Positions 1 through 5,797 of a stretch of 5,797 nucleotides of DNA are shown one piece after another. The position numbers and the translations under genes are program-made. The notes beneath the pieces were generated by a model. It had not been told where the DNA came from. It searched no databases and saw nothing but the letters and a program-made list of their open reading frames with translations. This DNA is from a virus. Lineage: Duplodnaviria > Heunggongvirae > Uroviricota > Caudoviricetes. The first letter of the stretch is position 1; the number at the start of each line of letters is the position of its first letter. Location of the stretch: the IMG/VR virus record IMGVR_UViG_2778261506_000008, positions 1 to 5,797 of that record; one strand, written 5' to 3'.

Positions 1-438
1 AGGCCGCAGTCGGTAACCTCGCGCATACAGCCGGGCAGTGACGTCATCGTCTGCGCGGAAATGGACGAACAGTGGGGCTATGTCGGGGCTAAATCGCGCC
101 AGCGCTGGCTGTTTTACGCGTATGACAGGCTCCGGAAGACGGTTGTTGCGCACGTATTCGGTGAACGCACTATGGCGACGCTGGGGCGTCTTATGAGGCT
201 GCTGTCACCCTTTGACGTGGTGATATGGATGACGGATGGCTGGCCGCTGTATGAATCCCGCCTGAAGGGAAAGCTGCACGTAATCAGCAAGCGATATACG
301 CAGCGAATTGAGCGGCATAACCTGAATCTGAGGCAGCACCTGGCACGGCTGGGACGGAAGTCGCTGTCGTTCTCAAAATCGGTGGAGCTGCATGACAAAG
401 TCATCGGGCATTATCTGAACATAAAACACTATCAATAA
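1..438 (+). CDS. insB: IS1 transposase InsB (5'-partial, frame open to window start; stop TAA 436-438)
   Basis: Translation (…[42 protein letters not shown]…[15 protein letters not shown]) is near-identical to IS1 InsB from memory. Two residues differ from the canonical copy I recall (Arg for Ser in YDRLRK and in LMRLLSP), suggesting an iso-IS1 variant. Confidence 0.9.
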
Positions 439-453
439 GTTGGAGTCATTACC
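431..453. repeat. IS1 right terminal inverted repeat
   Basis: Terminal ~23 bp matches the IS1 inverted-repeat end (complement reads GGTAATGACTCCAACTTATTGAT). Confidence 0.75.
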
Positions 454-480
454 CTGGAGCCGGACAGCAAAGACGGCCAG

Positions 481-1521
481 ATGGTGGCGCTGGTTGCGCT
501 GGCTATTCACGATGCCAATAACACGGCCATTACTGTTTACAACTGCTTCTCACCTGCTACGGGTTACGGCGCAGCGCTGACCAGTAACGTGAAAATTAAC
601 GGTATCGCGCGCAAAGGGGCGACGAACTCCACTGTGGATCTGCTGCTCACCGGCACTGCAGGGACAACTATCACGAACGGTACCGTTAAAGACACTAATA
701 ACGTGATCTGGCGTCTTCCTGCCTCAGTAGTGATTGGCGTTGACGGTACGGTTACGGCCACTGCCACTTGCTCAAACAGCGGCGCTGTCGCAGCGCTGGC
801 GGGGACAATTACTACCATCAACACACCGACTCGAGGCTGGACATCGGTAACCAACCCGGCGGCGGCCACCGTAGGCGCACCAGCAGAAACCGACGCAGAG
901 CTGCGCATCAGGCAGGGGCAGAGCGTCGCGCTACCCTCTATCACGCCGTTTGAGGGCGTTGACGGTGCGATTGCTAACGTTGCTGGCGTGACACGTCACA
1001 AGCTCTACGAAAATGATACTGGCGCGACCGATAGTAACGGGCTGCCGCCACACTCTATCTCAGCCATCGTGGACGGCGGGGACGTGACCGACATTGCCCA
1101 GACTATCCGGGGTAATAAAGGGCAGGGAACGGCGACCTACGGTACGACCTCTGTCACGGTACCGGACACTTACGGCAACCCACACGTGATCAGTTTTTCG
1201 CGTTCGACTGATGTTCCGATTTACGGGCATATCACACTGAAAGCCTTTACGGGCTACACGTCGCAAATTGGCGTGCAGATTCAGCAGGCCGTCGCGGATT
1301 ACATCAACGGGCTGACGATCGGTGATTCGGTTCTGCTGAGCCGCATATACTCCCCGGCGAACCTCGGCGTGGTGAGTGGTGGCAGTGCAAGCTATTACGA
1401 CATTCAGGAGCTGCTGATTGGCAAATCTGCCGGAACGGTAGCGGCGGCGAATATCAATATCGCCTACAACGAATCAGCGTCCTGTAAGCCGGAAAATATT
1501 GTTCTAACGGTGACGTCATGA
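481..1521 (+). CDS. Phage baseplate protein (baseplate J / Mu gp47 / e14 JayE-like), probably 5'-truncated by the IS1 insertion
   Basis: 346-codon ORF rich in Gly/Thr/Ala/Val, typical of a structural protein, sitting first in a coupled tail operon ahead of a tail fibre. The frame is open from the IS1 junction (454) to the first ATG at 481 and there is no Shine-Dalgarno before 481, so the true start probably lay upstream of the IS1. Stop overlaps the next start (ATGA at 1518-1521). Family assignment is from position and composition, not a confirmed domain match. Confidence 0.55.
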   Translation: MVALVALAIHDANNTAITVYNCFSPATGYGAALTSNVKINGIARKGATNSTVDLLLTGTAGTTITNGTVKDTNNVIWRLPASVVIGVDGTVTATATCSNSGAVAALAGTITTINTPTRGWTSVTNPAAATVGAPAETDAELRIRQGQSVALPSITPFEGVDGAIANVAGVTRHKLYENDTGATDSNGLPPHSISAIVDGGDVTDIAQTIRGNKGQGTATYGTTSVTVPDTYGNPHVISFSRSTDVPIYGHITLKAFTGYTSQIGVQIQQAVADYINGLTIGDSVLLSRIYSPANLGVVSGGSASYYDIQELLIGKSAGTVAAANINIAYNESASCKPENIVLTVTS

Positions 1522-2198
1522 GCAAGTACACAGATTTAATCACCAACTACCACGCCACCAGACCGAAATACTTTGATCACATCGACCTGAGCACCCGGCC
1601 GCTGATTGACATCACATCAGCCACCCGGGGGCTGGTTAGCGCATTTGACATTGATACGGCGGTAGGCGTCCAGCTTGATACCCTCGGGCTCTGGATCGGA
1701 CGTAGCCGTATAGTCAGCCAGCCCATTACGGGAGTTTATTTCAGCTGGGACACCGACGGGCTCGGATATGACCAGGGCGTCTGGCAAGGGCCGTATGATC
1801 CGGACTCAGGCTATACGTCGCTGAGCGATGACACCTACCGCATCATTCTGAAAGCAAAAATCGCTATCAACAACTGGGACGGCCGCAACGACTCTCTGCC
1901 GCCCATCCTTGACGCTGCGACTGCAGGCTCTGGCCTGAAGATGCAGATCGTCGACAACCAGGACATGACGATTTCGGTCTGGGTTTTCCCCGAGACTGAT
2001 ATTTCTGATGTGTCACTAGAACTGATCGCCGCTATCAAACAGGGCTATCTCACCGTAAAAGCTGCTGGCGTATGGGCCGGTGATGTGGAAACGCCTTCGG
2101 TAGAAACACCGTCCGAGGGCTCAAAATTCTTTGGTTTTGATATGGATAACGAATACATCGGCGGGTTCGATGTAGGAGCATGGGGGACTTTACTCTAA
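1518..2198 (+). CDS. Phage tail/baseplate protein (position of P2 gpI / Mu gp48 / e14 YmfQ)
   Basis: 226-codon ORF coupled to both neighbours (ATGA overlap at start, TAATG overlap at end) between the baseplate-J-like gene and the tail fibre gene. GGTGA-like SD 4 nt upstream. Function inferred from synteny only. Confidence 0.5.
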   Translation: MSKYTDLITNYHATRPKYFDHIDLSTRPLIDITSATRGLVSAFDIDTAVGVQLDTLGLWIGRSRIVSQPITGVYFSWDTDGLGYDQGVWQGPYDPDSGYTSLSDDTYRIILKAKIAINNWDGRNDSLPPILDAATAGSGLKMQIVDNQDMTISVWVFPETDISDVSLELIAAIKQGYLTVKAAGVWAGDVETPSVETPSEGSKFFGFDMDNEYIGGFDVGAWGTLL

Positions 2199-2959
2199 TG
2201 GCAACAAATAACTTTAAAGCGTTCGCGCTTGATCCTAATGCTAACGTCATGTCACAGGCTGACTGGGAATCGCTTCCGGCGTTGCTGTCCGGGTTTACCG
2301 CTGGTAAAGCATCCAGCGCTCAGGTCAACAAAGCCATTCGCCAGGCGACCACAATTGCCGCGCTGGTGGGGCAGTTTATTGCGAACTCCGGAGTAGATGC
2401 CCTGGACAATGCAGACGTTAACGGGCTGGTGACAAAATTCACGAATGCGCTTACCGCAAATCTCCGTTTGGGAGCTGGTGCTCCAGCTATAGGTATTCCT
2501 TTTTTCTGGCCGTCCTCGGCTATGCCAAATACGGTTATGACAGAATGGGCTGATATGGTATTTCTTAAGTTCAACGGAGCGACGTTCTCAGCGACCGCAT
2601 ACCCTAAATTAGCGCAGGTAATCCCTAGCTTAAAACTCACCGAAGCACGTGGCGAATTCCCACGGATTTGGGATGATGGTCGCGGAGTTGACTCAGGGCG
2701 AACCCTACTTAGCGCTCAAGGGGACGCTATTCGAAATATTACTGGCCAAATTATTGGCGCAAACTATAGAGCATGGCGTGGAGAGCCTACAGGGGTCTTT
2801 TCGTCAGCAGAATTGTCTCCAGGCAGTTCATTAAGTACAGATGGGACATCAAATACCAACGGCAGAGCAACCACTATGGATGTATCTCTTCAGGTCCCTA
2901 CTGCATCTGAAAATCGTCCACGTAACATAGCTTTTAACTTTTTAGTAAGGGCTAAATAA
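2198..2959 (+). CDS. Phage tail fibre protein with tail-collar domain
   Basis: N-terminus MATNNFKAFALDPNANVMSQADWESL is typical of Mu/e14-type side tail fibres. C-terminal half carries the collar signature (…TEARGEFPRIWDDGRGVDSGRTLLSAQGDAIRNITGQI…RPRNIAFNFLVRAK). Start chosen at the ATG overlapping the upstream stop (TAATG); an in-frame ATG at 2180 is an alternative. Confidence 0.8.
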   Translation: MATNNFKAFALDPNANVMSQADWESLPALLSGFTAGKASSAQVNKAIRQATTIAALVGQFIANSGVDALDNADVNGLVTKFTNALTANLRLGAGAPAIGIPFFWPSSAMPNTVMTEWADMVFLKFNGATFSATAYPKLAQVIPSLKLTEARGEFPRIWDDGRGVDSGRTLLSAQGDAIRNITGQIIGANYRAWRGEPTGVFSSAELSPGSSLSTDGTSNTNGRATTMDVSLQVPTASENRPRNIAFNFLVRAK

Positions 2960-3552
2960 TGAAACCAATTTTTGATAAAAATGGCCTGGCTACTGAATCA
3001 GGAAATATTCGCTGTTTTTATTACGATGAAAATACGAATGAATATATTGGTTGGTCAGATGAATATATTAATTTAGGTGTTAGCATGCCCAGTAACTCTA
3101 CCGATATTGAACCGGATCAGGAAGTAGACGGAATGATAGCTGTCTTTGTAAGCGGTGCCTGGAGGTATGAGGAGGATAATCGTGGAGAAATAGTCTACTC
3201 AACTGATACCGGCGAGCCTATGGAAATCGATTATATTGGCAAAGTTCGTGATGGTTTCACAAGAGTCGCCCCTTCAACCCCTTTCGACAGATGGGATGGT
3301 CAACGCTGGGTAATAGATGAAGATGCAAAGCATACTTCTGATGTTGTAAGTGCTGAAAAAGAAAAGGAGTTTAGAATTAATGAGGCTAATGAGTATATTA
3401 ATAGGATGCAATGGCCTGGTAAAGCATCCTTAGGGCGATTGAAAGAGACAGAAAAGGCTGAGTACAATAAATGGATTGATTATTTGGACGAACTTTTTTC
3501 CACGGATACATCAACGGCCCCAATGGTGAACTTCCCAAATAAACCAGAGTAG
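2959..3552 (+). CDS. Tail fibre assembly protein (Tfa chaperone, Caudovirales TAP family)
   Basis: 197-codon ORF starting at a TAATG overlap with the fibre gene, AAGGG SD 7 nt upstream. C-terminus …WIDYLDELFSTDTSTAPMVNFPNKPE resembles the conserved Tfa C-terminal motif (compare …VDTSTAPDIEWP…). Lower GC than the upstream tail genes. Confidence 0.8.
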   Translation: MKPIFDKNGLATESGNIRCFYYDENTNEYIGWSDEYINLGVSMPSNSTDIEPDQEVDGMIAVFVSGAWRYEEDNRGEIVYSTDTGEPMEIDYIGKVRDGFTRVAPSTPFDRWDGQRWVIDEDAKHTSDVVSAEKEKEFRINEANEYINRMQWPGKASLGRLKETEKAEYNKWIDYLDELFSTDTSTAPMVNFPNKPE

Positions 3553-3570
3553 GCATAAGCTATAGTATAA

Positions 3571-3593
3571 AGGGCATATTTGGCATATGCCCT
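3571..3593. terminator. Perfect 9-bp hairpin between the convergent tfa and acyltransferase genes (putative bidirectional terminator)
   Basis: AGGGCATAT-ttggc-ATATGCCCT, located 19 nt after the tfa stop and 14 nt after the acyltransferase stop, with A/T-rich flanks. Confidence 0.4.
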
Positions 3594-3606
3594 AATAAAA
3601 GGATTT

Positions 3607-4569
3607 TTATAAAAACAATGGTCGTTTGTAGACCTTCTTGAAAAGTGTAAGGGAGTACGATAAAGATAATGTGAGAACTATAATGGTAATAAATAACACT
3701 GATTTATTATTTATGCCGATTATGTCAAATATTTTATTTGTCGCTTTGATACAAAAAACATGTGCAAAGAAAATTGCTGTAGCAAAATCAGATAGTTTTT
3801 TTGAGTTTCCAGTCAAGGTTCCGCTTTTTGCAATTAAGAAGAGGATTGTAGATGTTGGTATGGAAAATATGAAAAGATCAATTGGTTTGTTTATTCCAAA
3901 AATCGCCTTGTTAATAATGCTTTCCGAAAGTAAAAGGCATATCGAGATTGCTAAAGTTGCATAAACTATTTTTTTGCTAAATTTCGAGAAAGTCTCAGTT
4001 ATGTTTAATTTATTAAGGAGAAAACCGAAGCATAAAAACGGGAAGCAATCAAATAAAAAATTCCTATATAGAGTTATTTTTATTTGCTCGTTCGTTATAA
4101 TTGTATTTACATATCCTTTGTTTACGATGTATTGAATAATTAATCCTATAAGGTATAGGGATAAGGAAGCAAGTAATAATTTTTCTGGGCGTAAATTTCT
4201 GCATTGCCTCAGAACAAGTGATGCCAGAATTAAACCCGGGATATACCATAATAGATGGTAACCAAAAAGAATGTTTAATAAAATGTCAATACCAGAATTG
4301 TTAGGTATCCAAAAATAAGAATACACGCACATCCAAGTAATATATAAAACGACTAATTTTTTTTGGTTTTTAAAGTATTCATTACTATTGATTGTTTTAT
4401 ATAGATAGTAACCGTTTATTATCAAAAACGTAGGTACTGCTATCCGGAATATTCCGTTGACCAGTAAATAACTCAAATCCATATTAAAAGATGCTAAGAA
4501 CTTCAAATGTAAAAGCATGACAAAAATTGACAGTAGAATTTTTAGTAGATCTAGGGTGATGTTTCTCAT
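3607..4569 (-). CDS. Integral membrane acyltransferase, acyltransferase-3 family (OafA/Oac-like), candidate O-antigen/LPS O-acetyltransferase
   Basis: 320-codon, highly hydrophobic multi-helix protein. Three acyltransferase-3 family motifs are present: N-terminal R-x4-D-x2-K…H (MRNITLDLLKILLSIFVMLLH), the RIAVPTFLIINGYYL block (family R…FF-x-SGF region), and HLLWYIPG (family HLWFL motif). Very AT-rich (by eye under ~30% GC), unlike its flanks. Weak SD. Confidence 0.7.
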   Translation of the reverse strand: MRNITLDLLKILLSIFVMLLHLKFLASFNMDLSYLLVNGIFRIAVPTFLIINGYYLYKTINSNEYFKNQKKLVVLYITWMCVYSYFWIPNNSGIDILLNILFGYHLLWYIPGLILASLVLRQCRNLRPEKLLLASLSLYLIGLIIQYIVNKGYVNTIITNEQIKITLYRNFLFDCFPFLCFGFLLNKLNITETFSKFSKKIVYATLAISICLLLSESIINKAIFGINKPIDLFIFSIPTSTILFLIAKSGTLTGNSKKLSDFATAIFFAHVFCIKATNKIFDIIGINNKSVLFITIIVLTLSLSYSLTLFKKVYKRPLFL

Positions 4570-4674
4570 GGTTTCATAAATGCCACTTTATTGATTTTTT
4601 CATATACTAACGTAATATTTTTATTATTTCACCAATAAATTGTCTGGCACACATGCATACTAAGTTCGGTTTGA

Positions 4675-4811
4675 AGGTTAAAGCTCGCGGAGGAGCTGTG
4701 GGCTGAAGCAGGAAGATTGATTGCGGCCGGGAAACCCTGCCAGTGCGTGGAGATAATTTATGATGGGGCGTTTTCAAGCTGTACCTGAAGCCCCCGGCGG
4801 GAAATGTGTGA
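4675..4811 (+). pseudogene. 3' remnant of a serine DNA invertase gene (Gin/Pin/Hin/Cin family), C-terminal HTH domain only, with a 1-nt frameshift
   Basis: Frame 1 (4675-4785) reads RLKLAEELWAEAGRLIAAGKPCQCVEIIYDGAFS; shifting by one nucleotide near 4777 continues as LYLKPPAGNV then stop (4809-4811). This parallels the invertase C-terminus as I recall it (Gin: …KAEWEQAGRLLAQGIPRKQVALIYDVALSTLYKKHPA). There is no start codon, and the upstream sequence is the AT-rich cassette on the opposite strand, so the catalytic N-terminal ~150 codons are missing. Confidence 0.55.
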
Positions 4812-4819
4812 AGTAAATG

Positions 4820-4850
4820 CAGGCGGCCTAGACGACAAACTGGCCGCCTG
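4820..4850. terminator. GC-rich hairpin between the invertase remnant (+) and the dinI-like gene (-); putative bidirectional terminator
   Basis: CAGGCGGCC-(13 nt loop)-GGCCGCCTG, a perfect 9-bp stem 7 nt downstream of the dinI-like stop and 9 nt downstream of the invertase-remnant stop, followed by TTTCACGTT on the + strand. Confidence 0.35.
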
Positions 4851-4857
4851 TTTCACG

Positions 4858-5124
4858 TTACATCGCAACTTGACGCACAGATGGGAGCTCAGACACCAAC
4901 CATATATCGGCCTCTTCAAACATATCCTCAAGCATGCGGTTCAGCTTCTCCCGATCGCTTTTGCTGGCATCGCTATTCAGGCCGTTCGCTTGCATCGGCT
5001 TCACCCTTACTTCGGCATCAGGGAAAATCTGGTGCACTCGTTTCGTCAGCTCTGCCAGGATAATCTCTCTGGCCCCTTCGAGCCCCTCTACATTGCGTTT
5101 GTCATAAACCAGTTCAACGAACAT
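4858..5124 (-). CDS. DinI-family protein (DNA-damage-inducible protein I-like, RecA-filament modulator), prophage-encoded
   Basis: 88-codon ORF; …ILAELTKRVHQIFPDAEVRVKPMQANGLNSDASKSDREKLNRMLEDMFEEADIWLVSE aligns with E. coli DinI from memory (…LAGELSRRIQYAFPDNEGHVSVRYAAANNLSVIGATKEDKQRISEILQETWESADDWFVSE). Strong SD GGAGG 5 nt before the ATG. LexA boxes lie upstream. Confidence 0.85.
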   Translation of the reverse strand: MFVELVYDKRNVEGLEGAREIILAELTKRVHQIFPDAEVRVKPMQANGLNSDASKSDREKLNRMLEDMFEEADIWLVSELPSVRQVAM

Positions 5125-5141
5125 AAAAGCCTCCGGAAAAC

Positions 5142-5189
5142 CACTGTGGTTGTATACAGTGTTTTTACTGTAAAAATAAACAGTGTCAA
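5142..5189 (-). promoter_or_regulatory. Tandem LexA operators (SOS boxes) overlapping the dinI-like promoter
   Basis: Two CTGT-N8-ACAG motifs: cores at 5144-5159 (CTGTggttgtatACAG) and 5168-5183 (CTGTaaaaataaACAG), the second matching the 20-mer consensus TACTGTATATATATACAGTA closely. On the gene strand a perfect -35 TTGACA (5184-5189) abuts box 2; candidate -10 hexamers are TAAAAA (5162-5167) or TATACA (5151-5156). Boxes sit about 20-60 nt upstream of the dinI-like ATG. Confidence 0.7.
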
Positions 5190-5246
5190 GGCGAGCGGGG
5201 CGCGAAAGGGAGAGGGGGTTTTGTTACCCTTAGTTACAAATAGAAA

Positions 5247-5277
5247 AACCCCAGACCGTGAGATCTGGGGTTCTTTT
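5247..5277 (-). terminator. Rho-independent terminator (bidirectional) between ssrA and the dinI-like promoter
   Basis: Stem AACCCCAGA / TCTGGGGTT (9 bp, 8-nt loop) flanked by U-runs on both strands (TTCTTTT on +, TTTTTCTATTT on -). Lies about 125-150 nt downstream of the mature tmRNA 3' end. Confidence 0.5.
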
Positions 5278-5395
5278 AAAGTGCACGTGCATTTCACGTG
5301 TATATTTTTGTCTTTTCTCGGTCTGCCTGCTGTCTGGTCAGTGTCCGTAAGTGGCTGTTTTTATTGCCGCTGTCCGGTTGCAGTCCTATCAAAAG

Positions 5396-5758
5396 TGGTG
5401 GAGCTGGCGGGAGTTGAACCCGCGTCCGAAATTCCTACATCCTCGGTACTACATGCTTAGTCAGTCTTTACATTCGCTTGCCAGCTGCGGACGGACACGC
5501 CACTAACAAACTAGCCTGATTAAGTTTTAACGCTTCAACCCCAGGCAGGACTTCCACGCGATCTCTTTTGGGTTTGACCTCTCTTGATCCCCGTCCTAAG
5601 AGCGGAGGCTAGGGAGAGAGGGCTCTAAGCAGGTTATTAAGCTGCTAAAGCGTAGTTTTCGTCGTTTGCGACTATTTTTTGCGGCTTTTTACGAGGCCAA
5701 CCGCCCCTCGGCATGCACCTTGGGTTTCGCAAATCCCGTCGAATCCAGAATCAGCCCC
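5396..5758 (-). ncRNA. ssrA: tmRNA (SsrA), complete 363-nt mature sequence
   Basis: Reverse complement begins GGGGCTGATTCTGGATTCGACGGG and ends …CCCGCCAGCTCCACCA, and contains the tag template GCAAACGACGAAAACTACGCTTTAGCAGCTTAA (ANDENYALAA). Essentially identical to the E. coli tmRNA I recall. Confidence 0.97.
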
Positions 5759-5772
5759 AATGTGTAAAGGTA

Positions 5773-5778
5773 AGTATA
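5773..5778 (-). promoter_or_regulatory. Putative -10 hexamer (TATACT) of the ssrA promoter
   Basis: TATACT lies 14 nt upstream of the mature tmRNA 5' end, consistent with a precursor start a few nt upstream of the mature end. The -35 would lie beyond the window. Confidence 0.4.
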
Positions 5779-5797
5779 CCAGATTTATGAGCGCCAT

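Follow-up and report, generated by a model that had tools for sequence, protein, structure and literature searches.

Phage-encoded acyltransferase-3 (AT3) enzymes of the Oac kind acetylate O-antigen and block superinfection (PMC9558356). The characterised phage-borne members listed in one review, Oac (OacA), OacD, the Oac of PhiV10 and OafB, act on O-antigen (PMC9558356). Oac of phage Sf6 has proven activity on a rhamnose of the O-antigen, and direct transfer to the acceptor by the AT3 domain is assumed for it (PMC9558356). In Salmonella, the prophage gene oafB gives protection against phage BTP1 (PMC9558356), oafA adjoins a phage tail-fibre assembly gene (PMC9426603), and WbaK of group E1 is encoded by an AT3 gene inside the O-antigen cluster (PMC9558356). 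In the model developed for AT3 and TmAT proteins, a pore in the membrane admits acyl-CoA from the cytoplasm, and transfer takes place at the periplasmic face with a histidine of the first transmembrane helix (TMH1; PMC9833829, PMC12423673). Here we consider an AT3 gene found at positions 3607-4569, on the minus strand, of a 5,797-base stretch of viral DNA (IMG/VR record IMGVR_UViG_2778261506_000008, positions 1 to 5,797; hereafter the window), which, from its gene content, is the right end of a prophage abutting a chromosomal gene. The gene encodes a 320-residue AT3-only membrane protein and would, with a probability that we put at about 0.6, serve in O-antigen or surface-polysaccharide conversion. 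What is known is the theme, a prophage moron for surface-glycan acylation; what is new is an uncharacterised, fairly divergent AT3 branch with unusual pore residues.

The protein matches the PF01757 (Acyl_transf_3) profile from end to end, residues 5-308 lying on profile positions 3-325 of 326 (E 1.7e-17; 64 bits against a curated cut-off of 31). This is its sole Pfam match, and no SGNH domain is found in the 320 residues. Profile-profile comparison (hhalign) links it to an alignment containing Sf6 Oac (probability 94.8%, E 5.5e-8, 258 columns). The initial annotation had proposed an acyltransferase-3 protein and had set a profile check for it beforehand; the two comparisons agree in placing the protein in this family. 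It is identical to WP_097428950.1, which carries the NCBI name 'acyltransferase family protein [Escherichia coli]'. Some NCBI records use an alternative start at Met18, giving 303 residues; the 320-residue start is favoured because R2, D7 and K10 are nearly invariant in the subfamily. No PADLOC defence-system model matches the AT3 or the DinI protein, and membership of the AT3 gene in a defence system was rejected on this ground.

The gene had also been singled out for its composition and orientation, and both features hold. The G+C content (GC) of the open reading frame (ORF) is 0.295, compared with 0.509 in its flanks. GC stays at 0.27-0.33 in every 200-nucleotide window from ~3600 to 4700, which agrees with the very low GC segment of about 1.1 kb described earlier; outside it, the values are 0.47-0.62 upstream of 2900 and 0.47-0.55 beyond 4700. 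The ORF runs opposite to, and is convergent with, the plus-strand tail genes. Two plus-strand ORFs within the AT-rich segment (3638-3964 and 3974-4135) were set aside as by-products of composition, the Pfam match and the conserved homologues being on the minus frame.

An AlphaFold model of the protein, built with 28 homologues, has a mean pLDDT of 91.8 and a pTM of 0.90 and is nearly all helix. Ten long helices (residues 4-21, 40-59, 63-82, 105-122, 128-150, 171-187, 199-224, 236-248, 258-284 and 289-313) are accompanied by short loop helices, the count being read from the DSSP string of the model and not from a topology predictor. A hydropathy scan finds strongly hydrophobic 19-mers over the entire protein. 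The membrane protein of about ten helices that had been predicted is thus recovered in a confident model. When the model is compared by Foldseek with solved structures in PDB, the top match is GWT1 (8xij), at a weak score (E 0.68, probability 0.66, TM 0.38); GWT1 is itself a TmAT member (PMC12423673). A phmmer search of PDB sequences returns nothing meaningful for the protein. Against BFVD, Foldseek gives one plausible match, a viral protein of 637 residues (probability 0.99, TM 0.50, E 0.085).

The published motifs of the family are R/K-X10-H, FFXISG or FxxxxG, and RxxR (PMC7448272, PMC12423673). Three AT3 motifs had been reported for the protein, and the first two are indeed there. The TMH1 motif with the catalytic histidine is represented by D7, K10 and H21, each at least 90% conserved among 28 subfamily members. 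The TMH2 motif is F48-L-I-I-N-G53, with F48 and G53 invariant and Asn52 in place of serine. The TMH6 glycine is also present, as G182, which is invariant in the subfamily. These are the features shared with Sf6 Oac (a basic residue and histidine in TMH1, F...G in TMH2, and the TMH6 glycine), and in the profile alignment K10 corresponds to R11 of Oac, H21 to H22, F48 to F48/F49, G53 to G53, and G182 to G206, which is itself invariant in the Oac-type alignment. The third motif, RxxR, is degenerate in the window protein (N68-Q-K70-K71) and is considered below. From these alignments, the protein is a member of the AT3-fold membrane acyltransferase family, on a divergent branch. Two further features of the pore region may be recorded. 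The enterobacterial clade has lysine at all pore positions where Oac and OafA have arginine, and His270, three residues after F267, is invariant across the subfamily.

The gene occupies a defined position in the prophage, between the tail-fibre assembly (chaperone) gene (2959-3552, plus strand; PF02413 Caudo_TAP, E 6.2e-26; phrog_105, E 1.3e-66) and a dinI-family prophage gene (4858-5124, minus strand; PF06183, E 3.2e-22). The latter is the conserved right border of the slot, with DinI protein identity of 92-94% across all E. coli comparators. In E. coli 25-07338, which has the same backbone at ssrA, the slot is empty: only 96 bp, with one GC-rich hairpin, lie between the assembly gene and dinI. 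By blastn, just 454-2269 and 4858-5797 of the window align with this strain, which delimits a variable block at 2270-4857 comprising the C-terminal part of the fibre gene, the assembly gene, the AT3 gene and its upstream region. Four relatives carry other AT3 genes in the slot, all on the same strand as the window gene: E. coli DX6, also at ssrA (334 residues), E. coli Rb-23 (341 residues), E. coli S163-2 (an AT3-SGNH protein of 631 residues, with PF19040 SGNH) and Salmonella phage SEN34 (SEN34_29, an annotated O-acetyltransferase of 363 residues). All four match PF01757 and have a GC of 0.32-0.36 against 0.47-0.52 in their flanks, and like the window protein they are uncharacterised. In the E. 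coli prophages the slot lies directly upstream of dinI; in SEN34 it is bounded by the assembly gene and the end of the prophage. An 88-residue protein downstream of the SEN34 acetyltransferase was considered as a DinI homologue and rejected, having no similarity to the window DinI and no Pfam match. In phage vB_EcoM-606R2 the slot holds an invertible fibre segment.

Because four relatives hold other AT3 genes in it, the slot has been filled repeatedly by different genes of this family, and by sequence comparison it has taken in at least five. The empty slot and the other AT3 genes in relatives bear out the proposal that the segment is a cassette inserted at the tail-fibre locus. Presence or absence on a homologous backbone, deviant GC and flanking hairpins at 3571-3593 and 4820-4850 together mark the AT3 gene, as judged from the DNA, as horizontally acquired prophage cargo, or a moron. 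Homology to Rb-23 picks up again at 4725, and the stretch 4725-4857, lying between the region upstream of the AT3 gene and the terminator of dinI, is ~87% identical to that strain, whose annotation has an incomplete helix-turn-helix pseudogene fragment there. By its sequence this stretch looks like a relic of a former occupant of the slot.

The arrangement parallels that of Sf6, in which the order is tailspike, terminator, convergent oac, promoter, int and attP; in the window it is fibre, assembly gene, hairpin, convergent AT3 gene, dinI and ssrA. Both enzymes are stand-alone AT3 proteins of similar length (333 residues in Sf6, 320 here) that match PF01757. The carriers differ, Sf6 being a podovirus with a tailspike and the window phage a myovirus with a fibre and chaperone. 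The cargoes of the same slot (SEN34_29 and those of DX6, Rb-23 and S163-2) resemble the window gene in position, strand, family, low GC and homologous backbone. They are detectably related to Sf6 Oac (BLASTP E 1e-6 to 1e-9), and the window protein is not. OafA and OafB share with it an AT3 membrane domain with the R/K-X10-H and F...G motifs, but the window protein lacks their eleventh helix, linker and SGNH domain. In OafA and OafB the final transfer is made by the SGNH domain; the window AT3 domain would act alone or with a partner.

The distribution of the gene is that of a rare module on a common backbone. At 90% identity, the AT3 protein falls in a cluster of 18 sequences, from E. coli and Enterobacter kobei; the corresponding clusters have 9 members for the fibre and 12 for the assembly protein, as against 998 for DUF2612 and 427 for DinI. 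The AT3, assembly and fibre proteins have adjacent accession numbers in both species, and the same dinI, chaperone and fibre genes flank the AT3 gene in all six contexts read. From these counts, fibre, chaperone and AT3 gene form a rare three-gene module on a very common prophage backbone. Megablast of 3400-4800 against 5,426 complete E. coli genomes gives no match, the gene being seen only in draft assemblies. A scan of 100,044 species-representative genomes finds no enterobacterial relative, the best matches being from Colwellia, Chryseobacterium and Vibrio at 36-38%. The tail fibre aligns over no more than its first 84-163 residues with that of most other prophages sharing the backbone; vB_EcoM-606R2 is the exception, its whole fibre and chaperone aligning at 48-51%.

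The gene can also be followed in prophage remnants. Three such loci (L001, L002 and L072) have AT3 copies at 83% protein identity and match 2818-5192 of the window as a single block at 81%. In two of them (L001 and L072) the fibre gene is down to its last 40 codons and dinI is split, and the AT3 gene is complete. The remnant assembly gene is frameshifted in L072 and is annotated merely as a fragment of 104-124 residues. By the Nei-Gojobori method, the ratio of nonsynonymous to synonymous divergence (dN/dS) between the window gene and the 83%-identical copies is 0.165-0.19 at a dS of ~0.5, and it is 0.14 within a Klebsiella-type pair. On these estimates the AT3 gene is under purifying selection, with dN/dS of ~0.17. 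The remnant setting of the Salmonella oafA gene resembles these two loci. The same two loci have two more AT3 genes ~3 kb from the 83% homologue (L001 3775-6807 and L072 1770-4802), one encoding an AT3-only protein of 360 residues and the other an AT3-SGNH protein of 643 residues; in L072, L073 and L074 the latter is broken into two ORFs. A small chromosomal region of this type thus holds three different acyltransferase genes.

The signals around the gene are those expected if it were transcribed on its own. Between the convergent stops of the assembly gene and the AT3 gene lies a hairpin at 3571-3593, whose perfect 9-bp stem (AGGGCATAT/ATATGCCCT) encloses a loop of 5 nucleotides. On the minus strand its free energy (dG) is -13.5 kcal/mol, with z -2.5, and it is probably a terminator common to both genes. 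Hairpins had been reported on both flanks of the segment. This left one stands; the right one, a 9-bp perfect GC-rich repeat at 4820-4850 on the minus strand (dG -23.6 kcal/mol, z -4.6), is 146 nucleotides past the proposed border at 4674 and terminates dinI, as it directly follows the dinI stop. A hairpin search of 4570-4800 found none, so there is none at the right border given as ~4674. The stem of the dinI terminator is retained, with different sequence, in L001 and L072. Upstream of the AT3 gene, an AT-rich region with promoter-like sites (4570-4680, minus strand) is better conserved than the sequence further upstream, and copies with 81% identity in the coding sequence show little variation in the ~110 bp before the ATG. 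A candidate promoter, GTGCCA-16-AATAAT with an upstream TG, lies at 4650-4623 on the minus strand. GATC sites occur only at 3876, 4548 and 4953, with none upstream of the AT3 gene, and phase variation of the gtr or oafB type (Dam, OxyR) was rejected on this account. The conserved AT-rich region, the dinI terminator shielding the upstream side and the shared hairpin downstream would make the gene a transcription unit of its own, and given these signals its expression from the prophage state is plausible.

These observations bear on the view that the gene is a silent passenger: foreign AT-rich DNA, quieted for example by H-NS, in a dead prophage, the intact frame reflecting recent acquisition. 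The window prophage is indeed defective, since IS1 sits in its baseplate J gene; the GC is 0.295, the gene has a weak ribosome-binding site, no strong promoter was found for it, and it is rare enough to be absent from the complete E. coli genomes searched. However, a dN/dS of 0.17 at dS ~0.5 is not that of neutral drift, the AT3 gene is the sole intact gene in remnants with decayed neighbours, its 110 bp upstream are conserved, and E. coli and Enterobacter kobei share the protein at more than 90% identity. We therefore consider a passenger role very unlikely. Selection, survival in remnants, linkage to receptor-binding and Wzy genes (see below) and the Sf6-like gene order lend indirect support to the earlier proposal of a lysogenic-conversion gene.

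Homologues of the protein are found in several settings. A word-indexed search gave 41 proteins, and an exhaustive one 1,079 clusters at 50% identity with E <=0.001, 100 of them at <=1e-30; on this showing the AT3 subfamily is modest, with members of ~300-330 residues. A 49% homologue lies between tail fibre and tailspike genes in a P2-like prophage of Klebsiella pneumoniae (the NCBI name of the copy), a 50% homologue is in a remnant beside a gene for 640 residues, and a 35% homologue, in a prophage of Vibrio parahaemolyticus, has replication genes on one side and the integrase on the other. More distant homologues (31-34%), in a Stenotrophomonas genome and metagenome contigs, overlap or adjoin genes for Wzy polymerase, glycosyltransferases and UDP-sugar dehydrogenase. 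Two further homologues are orphans. These contexts tie the subfamily to surface-polysaccharide repeat-unit pathways and, several times independently, to phage receptor-binding genes. In placement, though the comparison is not one of sequence, the distant members in Wzy-dependent clusters resemble WbaK; the window gene differs in being on a prophage, outside any biosynthesis cluster.

The same contexts are compatible with a working AT3 enzyme whose acceptor is some other envelope glycan (capsule or K-antigen, colanic acid, enterobacterial common antigen or lipopolysaccharide (LPS) core), with an effect on capsule- or core-dependent phages or on immunity and not on O-serotype. The Klebsiella homologue adjoins a tailspike gene, which hints at capsule, as Klebsiella tailspikes usually target capsule. 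The Wzy-type clusters of the distant homologues could be capsule or exopolysaccharide loci, and the subfamily is separate from the Oac-like AT3s. Furthermore, the substrate is unreadable from an AT3 sequence, and AT3-only proteins serve many glycans, WecH for example acting on enterobacterial common antigen (PMC7448272, PMC9558356). On the other side, the characterised phage-borne AT3s listed above act on O-antigen (PMC9558356), and the SEN34 cargo of the same slot is named an O-acetyltransferase, if by annotation only. On balance an acceptor other than O-antigen is a possibility to be kept in view, but a tentative one.

The O-antigen or surface-polysaccharide conversion reading builds on what is observed of the gene and its product: the family and fold class, the motif residues, the slot, the purifying selection, and the linkage to receptor-binding genes and polysaccharide clusters. 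From these we infer expression, an acetyl donor, an O-antigen acceptor and phage exclusion. In this scheme, modelled on characterised AT3 proteins, the enzyme would sit in the inner membrane, and an acyl group, most likely acetyl, would be taken from cytoplasmic acyl-CoA into its pore, which would be lined by K10, K70/K71 and F48...G53. These residues, like D7, H21 and G182, are conserved in the subfamily and align with counterparts in Oac. At the periplasmic face, His21 would then mediate transfer of the acyl group to a hydroxyl on the repeat unit of a surface polysaccharide, most likely the O-antigen. Lacking an SGNH domain, the protein would use its AT3 domain to pass the group straight to the acceptor. 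The outcome would be an altered surface antigen and less adsorption of phages that read that polysaccharide, and such a benefit to the host would explain how the AT3 gene outlives the rest of the prophage.

A number of points weigh against conversion of this kind. The first is distance from the known enzymes. In the BLASTP comparison that had been suggested with Oac-type enzymes, Oac gives E 0.74 and the protein proves to be no close relative of Oac, OacB-D or OafA, the homology to Sf6 Oac being visible profile to profile only. It has no similarity to the other slot AT3s either (BLASTP E >0.2; E 0.62 for SEN34_29). PHROGs has no family for it, and tblastn of the protein against 50,697 phage records at 1e-5 gives zero matches; function is thus transferable at the superfamily level only. 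In NCBIfam it gets just weak matches to a VanT membrane domain, far under the cut-off. Identity with a named enzyme was accordingly dropped, as BLASTP against Oac and SEN34_29, the tblastn of phage records, PHROGs and NCBIfam all failed to place the protein. Foldseek finds no solved structure in PDB at E <=0.001 for the model. Secondly, two motifs depart from the pattern. In TMH3, R73-A-R75-R76 of Oac aligns to N68-Q-K70-K71, so that the first arginine of RxxR is absent (Asn68) and the second is lysine, the subfamily consensus being W-x-K-R. In TMH9, A263-T-A-I-F267 is aligned to the S...Y278 of the Oac-type alignment in place of SxxxY. Mutating residues equivalent to those of RxxR or SxxxY damages OafA, Oac, HGSNAT or OatA, and conservation of RxxR is high, if not absolute (PMC7448272, PMC12423673; for the latter point PMC7448272). 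The third point concerns the phage. It is not assured that the enzyme would directly mask the receptor of the window phage, since fibres with a Tfa-type chaperone often bind the LPS core or outer-membrane proteins, not the O-antigen. Finally, the very low GC makes silencing by H-NS plausible. The divergence from Oac lowers the case that the protein is an Oac; it does not lower the case that it works like an AT3 surface-glycan acyltransferase.

The motif substitutions raise the question of whether the AT3 fold is here put to a changed chemistry, with another acyl donor (a longer or charged acyl-CoA) or in a role other than that of a transferase. K10, N68 and K70/K71 replace R and RxxR, and A263...F267 replaces SxxxY, at positions that surround acyl-CoA in models of HGSNAT and OafB (PMC12423673, PMC9833829), and the AT3 family does contain succinyl and other acyl transferases (PMC9558356). 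The published TMH1 motif, however, is R/K-X10-H, and lysine is usual in some TmAT families (PMC7448272, PMC12423673). Moreover, His21, F48, G53 and G182 are invariant, the changes from tyrosine to phenylalanine and from arginine to lysine are conservative, and distant members retain S-x-x-x-Y, the phenylalanine being a feature of the enterobacterial clade, so that the subfamily overall looks orthodox. A changed chemistry is hence highly improbable.

Conversion of the O-antigen or another surface polysaccharide can be extended in two directions, which taken jointly we regard as unlikely. One is that fibre tip, chaperone and acyltransferase may be a portable module to recognise and then mask a receptor, moving together between backbones and genera; the fibre-chaperone-AT3 module is found in E. 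coli, in Enterobacter kobei and in the remnant-carrying host. The other is a different donor or a non-O-antigen glycan: to judge from the aligned residues, a branch with an all-lysine pore and, in this clade, without the TMH9 tyrosine could use either.

The rest of the window is made up of the prophage backbone and its borders. At the left, positions 1-454 (plus strand) are the right end of IS1, with the 3' part of insB and the terminal inverted repeat (PF03400, E 1.7e-73; 99% identity to IS1 copies in phage records). A baseplate J gene follows at 455-1521 (plus strand; PF04865), its 5' end cut off by the IS1: the match to IS1 stops at 453-455, and homology to intact baseplate J genes of 399 residues begins at 454. 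An intact 399-residue baseplate J accompanies the same module in other strains (L088 and L089). The DUF2612 or baseplate wedge gene of the backbone is at 1518-2198 (plus strand; PF11041, E 6.7e-45), and the tail fibre gene at 2180-2959 (plus strand; phrog_3100 tail fiber protein, E 7.5e-63), with an NCBI start at 2198 and a product of 253 residues. At the right, ssrA, the gene for transfer-messenger RNA (tmRNA) and the chromosomal attachment site at the prophage end, is at 5396-5758 on the minus strand (ARAGORN; Rfam RF00023, 295.5 bits). The host is E. coli, since 5396-5797 equals E. coli chromosomes at 401 of 402 bases. Backbone relatives are Salmonella phage SEN34 (genus Brunovirus), Yersinia phage YP3 and several E. 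coli prophages, with DNA identity of 76-86% over the baseplate genes. On this homology the element is a SEN34-like temperate myovirus that has inserted into the E. coli chromosome at the 3' end of ssrA.

A spacer of 271 bp, ~95% identical in other ssrA-integrated prophages, lies between dinI and ssrA. It has two terminator-like hairpins, at 5244-5275 and 5281-5303; one of them, on the minus strand, has a stem of 14 pairs with a run of T after it. In four other loci (L086, L088, L090 and L091, ~450-8,900 in each) a P4-like satellite directly adjoins the prophage dinI, replacing the ssrA position. The satellites carry Psu, Ogr/Delta, AlpA, Ash and primase, with an integrase gene also in L086, and their variable ends differ: HamA and a helicase, a SIR2-like protein and DUF87, a HEPN protein, and a SEC-C protein. 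Prophage and satellites may be tandem elements with defence-type cargo, possibly sharing an attachment site.

If the enzyme is active, carriers would display an acylated surface polysaccharide that is not predicted by typing of O-antigen gene clusters, which would have a bearing on serotyping, on recognition by vaccines and antibodies, and on the choice of therapeutic phages. More generally, on at least five occasions a different acyltransferase gene has come to occupy one short slot in a prophage family common in E. coli and Salmonella. The slot is a convenient place to seek surface-modifying genes, and such a gene can outlast its phage.

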